From: Methanobacteriota archaeon
GTDB lineage: Archaea; Halobacteriota; Bog-38; Methanoflorentales; Methanoflorentaceae
NCBI GenBank assembly: GCA_963719035.1
Contig: CAVRAO010000002.1
Span: 32,001 to 96,000 of the forward strand
Direction of reading: 5' to 3'
Length of the DNA stretch: 64,000 bases
Both the position numbers and the translations under genes were made by a program. Positions within the stretch are counted from its first letter, which is position 1. Each line of letters opens with the position of its first letter. This document shows positions 1 to 58,432 of the stretch, one piece after another. A model generated the notes under the pieces. That model was not told the origin of the DNA and searched no databases. It worked only from the letters and a program-made list of their open reading frames with translations.

Positions 1-1111
1 GCTCGTTTGGAGCGTTTTTGCTTTTGCAATTACCGTTGTGCAGACACGTTTTACGTTTCTCTTGTCGGCAAATGTCGCAATCCTTTCCGGGTTCATGATA
101 GTGTGGATTATGGACACTCTGGTCAGCAAGGCGTATGGAGTGTTATTCAACGTCCGCGATGTCGGGGCGCTCCGACACCTTTTCGGGCGTGAAATAAAAT
201 ATACACAACTCATTGGCGTTTTTCTTATTGTGTTAGTCTTGCTCTTGCCAAGCATTAATGTGACCACAGCTTATGCAAAGAGCTCACAAGAGATATCGCC
301 CGATTGGAAGGATTCACTGCTGTGGATGAGGGATAACACGACGCAAACATCGAACTTCAATGTGAGCTCTGACCAAATACCAGAATATGGCGTGCTTAGT
401 TGGTGGGATTACGGTAACTGGATCATTTGGTTTGGTCATAGGCCTGCTGTTGCGAACAACTTCCAAACCGGCGTCAGCGATGCTGCGCAGTTCTTCACGA
501 GCCAAAATGAGTCCGACACCGTCAGCATCGTCCAGAACCGCAACGTTAAGTACGTTATGACAGACTATGAAATCGCAGACTATAACGGCAAGTTTCAGGC
601 TATCGCGTTACTCTCGGGGAAAGGAATTGATCCATTTATAACAACGCAACAATATTACACACAGAGTGGAACGATAGAGCAACAGCCTGCCCCAACAAAC
701 GCTTATCACAACACAACGGTCGTTCGGTTACACTATTATGATGGGAACGGCTATAGTCACTATCGCTTGGTTCACGAATCCAACTCGTCCGTCGGTACGC
801 TCGGTGGAACGGAAATCAAGTATGTGAAGACATTTGAGTACGTCAACGGCACAAAAATTAAGGTTACTGGTAACGGAAATACAACGCTATCGCTGAACGT
901 TACAACAAATCAAAATAGGACCTTCAACTATACACAGAGCGCTTTCGTAAACGGTACTCACACGTTTATAGTGCCTTACTCGACAAACTGGACGTCCAAC
1001 GGCATGCAAACAGGCAATGCGTACAACGTAACCGTCGGAAACTCGACGAAATCGATTGCTGTAAGCGAAAGTGACGTTACTAGTGGAAAAGAGTTGAGCC
1101 TGAGTTTTTGA
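1..1111 (+). CDS. aglB: Oligosaccharyltransferase AglB/STT3, C-terminal part (5' truncated by window)
   Basis: WWDYG motif, ANNFQ, YVMTD, TM helices followed by a beta-rich C-terminal domain. Confidence 0.93.
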   Translation, partial: LVWSVFAFAITVVQTRFTFLLSANVAILSGFMIVWIMDTLVSKAYGVLFNVRDVGALRHLFGREIKYTQLIGVFLIVLVLLLPSINVTTAYAKSSQEISPDWKDSLLWMRDNTTQTSNFNVSSDQIPEYGVLSWWDYGNWIIWFGHRPAVANNFQTGVSDAAQFFTSQNESDTVSIVQNRNVKYVMTDYEIADYNGKFQAIALLSGKGIDPFITTQQYYTQSGTIEQQPAPTNAYHNTTVVRLHYYDGNGYSHYRLVHESNSSVGTLGGTEIKYVKTFEYVNGTKIKVTGNGNTTLSLNVTTNQNRTFNYTQSAFVNGTHTFIVPYSTNWTSNGMQTGNAYNVTVGNSTKSIAVSESDVTSGKELSLSF

Positions 1112-56611: not shown

Positions 56612-56850
56612 TGTTCATTTATAGATCTTTTCGATATATAATGCTGAAGCTAACAGCCCGCATTAGAGCGCTCAATATGCATCTCGACATTCGAGCCGGC
56701 CAAAATCAGGGCTTAATGATAGCTAATAACTGTATAACTCTCTTAGAAATAACTCCCTGAAGCTCTAACGGTATTTGTCGAAGCGCGCTTTCGTTATCTC
56801 GCCAAACATTGTATTAGCGAAGCGTACGGCCTACGGTGCTCTGAAAAAAG

Positions 56851-56922
56851 TGGACCGGTCGGGAATTGAACCCGAGGCCTCTACCATGCCAAGGTAGCGA
56901 TCTACCCCTGATCTACCGGCCC
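56851..56922 (-). tRNA. tRNA-Ala(GGC)
   Basis: Reverse complement GGGCCGG...CTACC-TTGGCAT-GGTAG...GGTTCAATT...CCGGTCCA forms a 72-nt cloverleaf. Confidence 0.95.
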
Positions 56923-57053
56923 GTTGATGTTCTTTTTTGTCTACGGTAGGCAAATTAAATAGAGGCAACAGCTCTTTAGACTAAAGACATATAAGTATTG
57001 CTTCGAACGTAAGTCGCGTCGTGCTTCTCGCTGGGCTTAGAATCAGCAGACAA

Positions 57054-57068
57054 GAATTGTTATATATC
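57054..57068 (+). promoter_or_regulatory. Putative BRE/TATA for tRNA-Ile
   Basis: GAATTGTTATATATC ~35-45 nt upstream of the tRNA 5' end. Confidence 0.5.
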
Positions 57069-57102: not shown

Positions 57103-57209
57103 GGGCCCGTAGCTTAGCCAGGTTTGATTCCGTCTATGTCAATTCAGGGCGGAGAATATGCGCACGGCTGATAACCGTGAGGCCAGGCGTTCAAATCGCC
57201 TCGGGCCCA
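57103..57209 (+). tRNA. tRNA-Ile(GAU) with a 32-nt non-canonical intron (57128..57159)
   Basis: Acceptor GGGCCCG/CGGGCCC-A, anticodon arm CACGG-CTGATAA-CCGTG, T arm AGGCG-TTCAAAT-CGCCT; removing the intron restores the D stem GCTT/GAGC. Confidence 0.9.
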
Positions 57210-57682
57210 TCATTTTCAGTGAACGACGATTCTAGCTTGTAAGCTAAGCCTTCACAAACTGCAACGACGCGTTGATCGTCGGTCCGCACAACAATCTTGT
57301 AGAGGGCGGTGGTCTTACCTGAGCTCTCTTCACTAGCTTCTGCAATGAGCTTTGTGCCAATTGTGACTGGTCTTCGGTACGTTATATGGAAAGAAAGAGC
57401 GACCGCTGTCTGGTTGAAAGAATTGCAGGCTGCCGCAAATGCCACGTCTGCTAGGGAAAAAATGAAGCCCCCGTGCGCGACTTCGTTAAAATTTAGCATA
57501 TGCTCGGCAACTGTTACCACAGCTTGTGCGTATCCTCTTTCGATCTTAGCAATTCGAGCCCCCAAGAAGCTCGCGTAGCTGTCGCTTTTTAGCTTTGCTA
57601 GGACGCGAGCAAGTTCATTGTTCGTAGCTTCTGGCGTGAGACCCATCAGAATCAACCCCATATATGACTTTTTTGCCGCCAC
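57191..57682 (-). CDS. PaaI/hotdog-fold thioesterase
   Basis: NFNEVAHGGFIFSLADVAFAAACN. Confidence 0.9.
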   Translation of the reverse strand: MAAKKSYMGLILMGLTPEATNNELARVLAKLKSDSYASFLGARIAKIERGYAQAVVTVAEHMLNFNEVAHGGFIFSLADVAFAAACNSFNQTAVALSFHITYRRPVTIGTKLIAEASEESSGKTTALYKIVVRTDDQRVVAVCEGLAYKLESSFTENDGPEAI

Positions 57683-58347: not shown

Positions 58348-58432
58348 TGCGGGGGGTGCGATTCGAACGCACGAACTCCTACGAGAATAGGCCCTGAACC
58401 TATCGCCTTTGACCTGGCTTGGCAACCCCCGC
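58348..58432 (-). tRNA. tRNA-Leu(CAG)
   Basis: Reverse complement GCGGGGG...ATAGG-TTCAGGG-CCTAT, long variable arm, GTTCGAATC; 85 nt. Confidence 0.95.

Follow-up and report, generated by a model that had tools for sequence, protein, structure and literature searches.

The window, a stretch of 64,000 nucleotides, carries on its forward strand a tRNA-Ile(GAU) gene that is interrupted by a short insert. The insertion point lies within the D stem, on its 3' strand, and the 5' exon accordingly comprises the 5' strands of the acceptor and D stems, the D loop and the two bases that open the 3' side of the D stem. The features of the locus are as follows.

56850..56922, minus strand: tRNA-Ala(GGC), intronless, divergent upstream neighbour (ARAGORN, Rfam)
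57053..57067, plus strand: BRE/TATA-like element, AGAATTG plus TTATATAT, 36-50 nt upstream of the mature 5' end (read from the sequence)
57103..57209, plus strand: tRNA-Ile(GAU) gene, 107 nt with the intron and 75 nt after excision (cloverleaf and orthologues)
57103..57127, plus strand: 5' exon, tRNA positions 1-23 (cloverleaf; the halves abut here in intronless orthologues)
57122..57125, plus strand: 5' strand of the central helix H, GTTT, in the exon; partner 57154-57157
57126..57128, plus strand: 5' bulge GA^T, three bases; predicted cut 57127/57128
57128..57159, plus strand: intron, 32 nt, between tRNA positions 23 and 24 (sequence and in-silico excision)
57129..57135, plus strand: 5' strand of the intron helix h'; partner 57147-57153, 7 bp
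57147..57153, plus strand: 3' strand of the intron helix h'; partner 57129-57135
57154..57157, plus strand: 3' strand of the central helix H, GAAT, in the intron (covariation and RNAalifold)
57158..57160, plus strand: 3' bulge AT^G, three bases; predicted cut 57159/57160
57160..57209, plus strand: 3' exon, tRNA positions 24-73, anticodon GAT at 57170-57172
57213..57216, plus strand: T run directly past the gene, terminator-like as judged from the sequence

When nucleotides 57128-57159 are removed in silico, the remaining 75 nt are recognized by ARAGORN as tRNA-Ile(gat) with a regular cloverleaf and the D stem GCTT/GAGC. In the spliced form the 7-nt anticodon loop contains GAU, and intronless tRNA-Ile(GAU) genes are orthologous to it. 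Given the unspliced 107 nt, the same program reported no tRNA. The initial annotation had described the locus as a gene for tRNA-Ile(GAU) whose bulge-helix-bulge intron lies at position 23/24, and this is borne out by the sequence, by ARAGORN on the excised form and by the orthologues. Its coordinates, central helix and bulges also stand, but the intron helix comprises 7 bp and not the six it had been given. In the window's genome (G000), helix H consists of two G:U and two A:U pairs. On the far side of the 3' bulge there is one closing pair alone, G57121:C57161 (G18:C25 in tRNA numbering), and the pair beyond it is non-standard in most of 26 aligned sequences (columns 18/63, inspected by eye). 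With h' at 7 bp and h at 1 bp, the motif in G000 falls short of the strict hBHBh' form, which alpha4 and alpha'2 enzymes reportedly require and for which Marck and Grosjean reportedly set in 2003 a threshold of at least 2 bp for the flanking helices. By that strict definition, the D-stem motif is relaxed on its 3' side. The minimum-energy fold of the single sequence, in which D-loop bases pair with the T arm, is not tRNA-like and was set aside.

The 3-4-3 geometry with a 4-bp H and an h' of at least 7 bp occurs by chance about 1.0 times per kb and strand, as counted in 200 kb of the genome. About 0.1 such motifs are thus expected per 107 nt, which makes the motif by itself weak evidence, and for this reason the case is built on restoration of the cloverleaf, intronless orthologues and covariation.

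The promoter-like element recurs in near-identical form upstream of the gene at all 15 of the 15 family loci listed, and AGAATTG plus TTATATAT probably acts as the promoter. In G017, G038 and G027, an opposite-strand tRNA match of uncertain identity lies 100-250 nt away. No further tRNA-Ile(GAU) gene was found in the 91%-complete G000 assembly by ARAGORN or Rfam; an intronless copy elsewhere in the genome, together with the lack of a spliced product, is what the initial annotation had named as speaking against the intron. The four single-contig relatives G010, G017, G018 and G022 each yield one match.

The initial annotation had also expected that standard callers could overlook the gene, and ARAGORN and Rfam indeed missed or miscalled it. 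ARAGORN in default mode missed it in the window, and with the option -i it returned a wrong call, tRNA-Asp(gtc) with a wrong 13-nt intron, at identical gene ends. The Rfam tRNA model at gathering score did not report it in a scan of the window; in the whole-genome search it matched only the 3' 63 nt of the gene, at 29.1 bits. Elsewhere in the window, ARAGORN calls a tRNA-Leu(CAG) at 58348-58432 on the minus strand, which is absent from the Rfam gathering-score results for both the window and the whole genome.

The distribution of the insert was followed by a DNA search in 41 genomes, i.e., G000 and 40 relatives, 38 of which gave a match. The full 107 nt including the insert could be aligned in 15 of the 17 other genomes of the genus. 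In the sixteenth genome a contig end truncates the match, and the seventeenth (60% complete) has no match. The sister genus contributes insert-bearing alignments in five of six genomes, such that the same insert site is found in 21 of 23 family genomes (16/17 in the genus and 5/6 in the sister genus). A preprint equates the family Bog-38 with Ca. Methanoflorentaceae and Rice Cluster II. The MAG 'bog_38' and one genome of the window's genus share an identical tRNA-Ile sequence, so the window probably belongs to this family. Two genomes from other families of the phylum sample, G038 and G031, carry inserts of 20 and 22 nt at the same site. Among the matches listed, an insert at 23/24 is absent in G024, G034, G037, G032 and G035, the last of which shows a different anticodon and is of doubtful orthology. 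G027 is likewise intronless: nucleotides 1-25 of the query align at 556-580 and nucleotides 58-107 at 581-630, with the halves adjoining. Because the exon halves abut there, an orthologue that naturally lacks the intron has exactly the predicted junction.

A pattern scan with one genome per species, which allowed inserts of 10-40 nt at the tRNA-Ile site, yielded 33 loci with an insert in named records, of which 31 could be parsed. Twenty of the 31 belong to the 32-35-nt type of the window's family; their MAGs come from peat, bogs and fens and are labelled Euryarchaeota, Halobacteriota, Methanomicrobia or Methanobacteriota, apart from a few with implausible labels. Another eight, from records with the label Methanocella or Methanocellaceae, have inserts of a 20-26-nt type; among these is the chromosome of a cultured Methanocella, which carries two copies. 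Two more are of a 20-nt type, one labelled Methanocellales and the other Halobacteriota. The remaining locus (L042; tRNA at 269-359, minus strand) bears an Aenigmatarchaeota label, has a 16-nt insert at 23/24 and differs in the acceptor stem. For the two unparsed loci, L046 and L049, inserts of 23 and 20 nt are implied by match length. Over 26 distinct orthologous sequences the length of the intron ranges from 16 to 35 nt, while the junction is constant. Three insert-bearing tRNA-Ile loci sit in records with implausible labels, namely L035 (Bathyarchaeia), L046 (Desulfotomaculum) and L056 (Acidiferrales). L035 and L056 are identical to loci of the window's methanogen family, and the 23-nt insert of L046 is consistent with the Methanocella type; these contigs are likely misbinned or mislabelled.

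The insert types of the two other families recur in the records labelled Methanocella, Methanocellaceae or Methanocellales. Because the genomes of the family share the intron and two other families also have an interruption at this position, its distribution marks it as old and not newly gained. The recent acquisition considered in the initial annotation is contradicted by the shared site in 16/17 and 5/6 genomes of the two genera, in two other families and in the Methanocella-labelled records. The 16-nt Aenigmatarchaeota case points to either a very old intron or a site with repeated intron gains.

Covariation was assessed by counting the proposed structure on an alignment of the 26 distinct precursor sequences. 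Standard pairs fill 98.0% of the cells as compared with 83.8% in shuffles, none of 500 shuffles reaches the observed value, and in a control with the partners slid by 1-3 columns 35-50% of the cells are paired. All four pairs of H are standard in 26/26 sequences, with the variants GU/GC, UA/UG, UA/CG and UG/GC/CG. Two of the H pairs vary on both sides and in this way link exon with intron. Helix h' has two-sided changes in seven of seven pairs and 90.9% of its cells paired. G18:C25 is uninformative for covariation since it is invariant in 26/26 sequences. RNAalifold, to which the structure was not supplied, predicted the acceptor, anticodon and T arms together with H, a 3-nt bulge and h'. Taken as comparative evidence, these patterns argue firmly that the insert is a real intron, neither chance nor artefact.

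At the RNA level, the metatranscriptome runs contain 7-12% of the sampled words and were covered as contigs only. Some contigs show apparent joints from 57123 or 57124 to 57160, but these were rejected as a splice product: they carry extra GGA or GA letters and foreign flanks and have one D-loop T fewer. Because of the extra letters and the foreign flanks, they are ascribed to intronless tRNA-Ile genes of other organisms. No joint among the metatranscriptome contigs matches the predicted junction. One RNA-library contig spans the unspliced form from a relative.

The initial annotation had proposed a survey of the other tRNA genes of the genome for non-canonical introns, and this indeed brought to light a second D-loop intron, at 17/18 of a tRNA(CAT). 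The tally for G000 comprises hand-corrected ARAGORN -i calls plus one gene from our own acceptor/T-arm scan; 17 of the 45 credible tRNA genes contain introns, 18 in total. A tRNA-Arg(gcg) called by ARAGORN -i at C2:557062-557485 with a 330-nt intron is doubtful, is not seen by Rfam and was excluded from the 45. The gene from our own scan is an elongator-Met-like tRNA(CAT) with two introns (contig C12, 157953-158082, plus strand; locus L096:101-230), namely a 31-nt D-loop intron at 17/18 and one of 26 nt at 37/38. Its 17/18 intron has the strict motif with H = 4, h = 4 and h' = 8. ARAGORN missed this gene with and without -i, and its Rfam score of 26.7 bits is below threshold. The D-loop intron is retained in 12/17 genus and 5/6 sister-genus genomes and missing in the orthologues found outside the family, which have the canonical intron alone.

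For 11 canonical introns whose H has 4 bp, cutting after the second base of each bulge leads to the 37/38 junction; the same rule fits three introns with three of four H pairs as well as the second tRNA(CAT) intron, which has a 4-bp H. For the tRNA-Ser(TGA) intron, no boundaries compatible with a 4-bp H could be identified. By a crude count of contiguous pairs, the 12-nt canonical intron of tRNA-Gly(TCC) (C2:121370-121453) has h' = 0. The canonical introns of the Gln, Ser-GGA and Leu-TAA tRNAs have h' = 1 when contiguous pairs only are counted and no energy model is applied, and those of Thr-GGT, Thr-CGT and Ala-CGC have three of four H pairs, again by a crude count. Several of the short canonical introns, the 12-nt one of tRNA-Gly(TCC) among them, look like bulge-helix-loop forms. 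The genome also contains two 3' fragments of tRNA-Val that comprise the last ~45-50 nt (C8:30462-30528, plus strand, locus L097; C11:83985-84045, minus strand, locus L098). The anticodon loop reads CAC in one and GAC in the other, the latter being close to tRNA-Val(GAC). Both are followed by a similar T-rich tail, no 5' half lies nearby, and they resemble what integrated elements leave behind of their attachment sites.

The splicing endonuclease of the lineage was then compared with enzymes of known architecture. In G000, endA is represented by a single locus that contains two PF01974 repeats, and the genome search turned up no further copy. The PF01974 search retrieved EndA in 22 of 23 family genomes. 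All 19 of the 19 family orthologues recovered are single open frames of 340-360 aa with both repeats inside. Tyr, His and Lys motifs are present in the C-terminal repeat, and the His motif is confined to this repeat as judged by eye from the sequences. The best solved relative is the alpha'2 EndA of Archaeoglobus fulgidus (E = 5.6e-34, residues 23-332 of 345). Alignment with 3P1Y, an engineered A. fulgidus (AFU) EndA carrying the Crenarchaea-specific loop (CSL; PMC3241643), leaves a 9-residue gap in the query at the loop site. G040 excepted, none of the 14 aligned EndAs listed has an insertion at the specificity-loop site, and the alignment reveals no insertion in the enzymes of intron-bearing lineages as compared with G027 and G037, two genomes with an intronless tRNA-Ile. 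A broad-specificity EndA, (alpha-beta)2 or epsilon2, has its alpha and beta subunits encoded separately or joins three units in one chain, and carries an inserted loop (CSL or ASL) with a conserved Lys; these hallmarks are lacking here, where the single endA locus shows no insertion at the loop site. Going by its sequence, the family EndA is an ordinary alpha'2 type without specificity loop. The suggestion of an unusual EndA made in the initial annotation thus finds no support at the level of architecture and loop (alpha'2, no specificity-loop insertion, a single endA locus), and a change of specificity via point substitutions is possible. RtcB is present in G000 (562 bits).

Note that endA of G000 itself (C2:672015-672799, minus strand; locus L001:1453-2498) is split into frames of 255 and 131 aa by two extra bases relative to four relatives. 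The adjacent trpS gene for tryptophanyl-tRNA synthetase has one additional G in a G run, and because this neighbour also carries an indel, the +2-nt shift in endA is taken as an assembly error. Both shifts are probably assembly indels, which suggests that other frameshifts exist in the assembly. In an EndA tree computed with a quick method, in which G007 and G019 were labelled intron-bearing by family membership, having no tRNA-Ile match, and G025, G028, G033 and G040 were labelled 'none' despite partial tRNA matches, there are at least two changes of intron state, and one old gain followed by losses fits as well as repeated gains.

In the literature, Euryarchaeota with alpha4 or alpha2 EndA are described as having introns in fewer than 10% of their tRNA genes, one per gene and at the canonical position (PMC4090602). 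Non-canonical introns are said to be cleaved only by (alpha-beta)2 and epsilon2 enzymes, and Cluster II Euryarchaeota to possess alpha'2 EndA exclusively (PMC5829648). In agreement with the initial annotation, two papers state that non-canonical introns are rare in Euryarchaeota (PMC4090602, PMC5829648). The HBh' intron in the D loop of Methanopyrus kandleri tRNA-Glu is not efficiently removed by AFU EndA (PMC5829648), and a D-loop bulge-helix-bulge intron is hardly cut by the wild-type AFU enzyme, a loop insertion rescuing cleavage (PMC3241643). The D-loop introns of M. kandleri tRNA-Glu(UUC), an HBh' intron at 20b/21, and of Aeropyrum pernix tRNA-Thr(UGU) resemble the present one in that they are protein-spliced, reside in the D arm of an essential gene, have cut sites 4 bp apart and one relaxed motif side, and cause trouble for callers (PMC5829648, PMC3241643). 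They differ in that their hosts have (alpha-beta)2 EndA, whereas the enzyme is alpha'2 here, in the host and the 22 matching family genomes. Position 23/24 is absent from the position list in a review, but this list ends with 'etc.' and its silence does not imply that the position is novel (PMC4090602).

With the canonical euryarchaeal hBHBh' introns at 37/38, which are processed by alpha4 or alpha'2 enzymes, the tRNA-Ile intron shares the enzyme class, the 3-4-3 geometry and the cut rule. In contrast to them, it is located in the D stem, the exon strand of H is provided by the D loop instead of the anticodon loop, and a 1-bp outer helix takes the place of the anticodon stem. The lineage's EndA resembles the alpha'2 enzyme of A. 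fulgidus (PDB 2GJW, 1R0V, 1RLV) in having two tandem repeats, a C-terminal repeat that bears the catalytic motifs, and a short turn where the specificity loop would sit. It differs in that the aligned region is visibly divergent and the G000 gene is interrupted by the +2-nt shift. We found no publication on non-canonical tRNA introns in Methanocella or Bog-38; databases of the GtRNAdb type may already annotate the Methanocella gene. The M. paludicola genome paper lists 48 tRNAs, four of them with introns identified with intron-aware software, and does not give positions. The kind of feature, i.e., non-canonical bulge-helix-bulge introns including D-arm cases in Euryarchaeota, is known, and it is the enzyme background that is unexpected.

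We consider it very probable that the locus is a functional single-copy tRNA-Ile(GAU) gene of a peat methanogen with an old, protein-spliced intron at 23/24. The gene would be transcribed from the BRE/TATA-like promoter. In the precursor, as the covariation shows, the D-loop bases G19-U21 pair with the 3' end of the intron, giving the 4-bp H, two 3-nt bulges and a 7-bp hairpin. Following the motif rule, homodimeric alpha'2 EndA would cut after the second bulge base, at 57127/57128 and 57159/57160. RtcB would then ligate the exons, and the D stem GCTT/GAGC would be able to form only afterwards. Splicing of tRNA-Ile(GAU) is what we infer from comparative data, and the lack of a spliced product among the metatranscriptome contigs, like the single-sequence minimum-energy fold that is not tRNA-like, would also suit a gene in which the insert is retained, either as an extra hairpin in the D arm of the tRNA or in a decaying pseudogene. 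Retention is nevertheless very unlikely. The D stem cannot form while the insert is in place, and the exons are near-invariant in the family whereas the insert varies between 16 and 35 nt and drifts in sequence. Moreover, the bulge-helix-bulge geometry has been kept through compensatory changes, including those in exon-intron pairs, and the gene is the sole tRNA-Ile(GAU) found in G000, with one match each in four closed relatives. An origin of the insert from misassembly, wrong binning or foreign DNA deserves next to no credence. Indels in at least two neighbouring genes elsewhere in the assembly and the implausible labels on some insert-bearing records (Bathyarchaeia, Desulfotomaculum, Acidiferrales) could be quoted in its favour, but more than 30 independent assemblies, single-contig genomes and the cultured Methanocella chromosome among them, share the insertion at this site, and an RNA-library contig from a relative spans the insert. 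Such an origin is effectively refuted.

A different matter is whether the intron is real and the EndA of the lineage is functionally unlike the A. fulgidus enzyme, which would refine the reading as a protein-spliced intron and not exclude it. Through substitutions, use of the tRNA body or a helper protein, the enzyme might accept D-arm sites as well as bulge-helix-loop ones as substrates. The conservation of two D-arm introns within the family speaks for this, as do several canonical-position introns that lack h' or have three of four H pairs by a simple count, and the report that wild-type alpha'2 AFU EndA hardly cuts D-loop introns in vitro and leaves BHL minihelices uncut (PMC3241643). On the other hand, no insertion or obvious lineage-specific block distinguishes the enzyme from those of G027 and G037, which have an intronless tRNA-Ile, or from that of G028; the helix counts are crude; and failure in vitro of a thermophile enzyme on a foreign substrate need not predict the situation in vivo. 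An altered EndA is therefore a serious possibility, to which we assign somewhat less than an even chance.

The intron of tRNA-Ile(GAU), spliced as proposed, has consequences for annotation. Without intron-aware calling, tRNA-Ile(GAU) seems to be absent from one of the most abundant families of peat methanogens, and a tRNA(CAT) gene goes unnoticed too; missed tRNA genes distort estimates of completeness and decoding capacity. The main interest of the finding, however, lies in the mismatch between a plain alpha'2 enzyme and the intron repertoire of the lineage. An alpha'2 lineage in which 17 of 45 tRNA genes contain introns and two introns lie in the D arm contrasts with the textbook euryarchaeal pattern and would constitute a natural counter-example to the published assays of alpha'2 EndA on D-loop introns. 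Because a cultured Methanocella carries the same tRNA-Ile intron, the substrate range of alpha'2 EndA is directly testable. We tentatively put forward, while leaning slightly the other way, that Rice Cluster II and Methanocellales are a natural exception to the rule that EndA architecture and tRNA introns co-evolve, either because their alpha'2 EndA is broadened or because limits seen in vitro fail in vivo. This proposal builds on the relaxed D-stem intron, the second D-loop intron in tRNA(CAT) and several bulge-helix-loop mini-introns. If the enzyme is broadened, the new route to its specificity would run through substitutions, through the body of the tRNA or through a partner protein.
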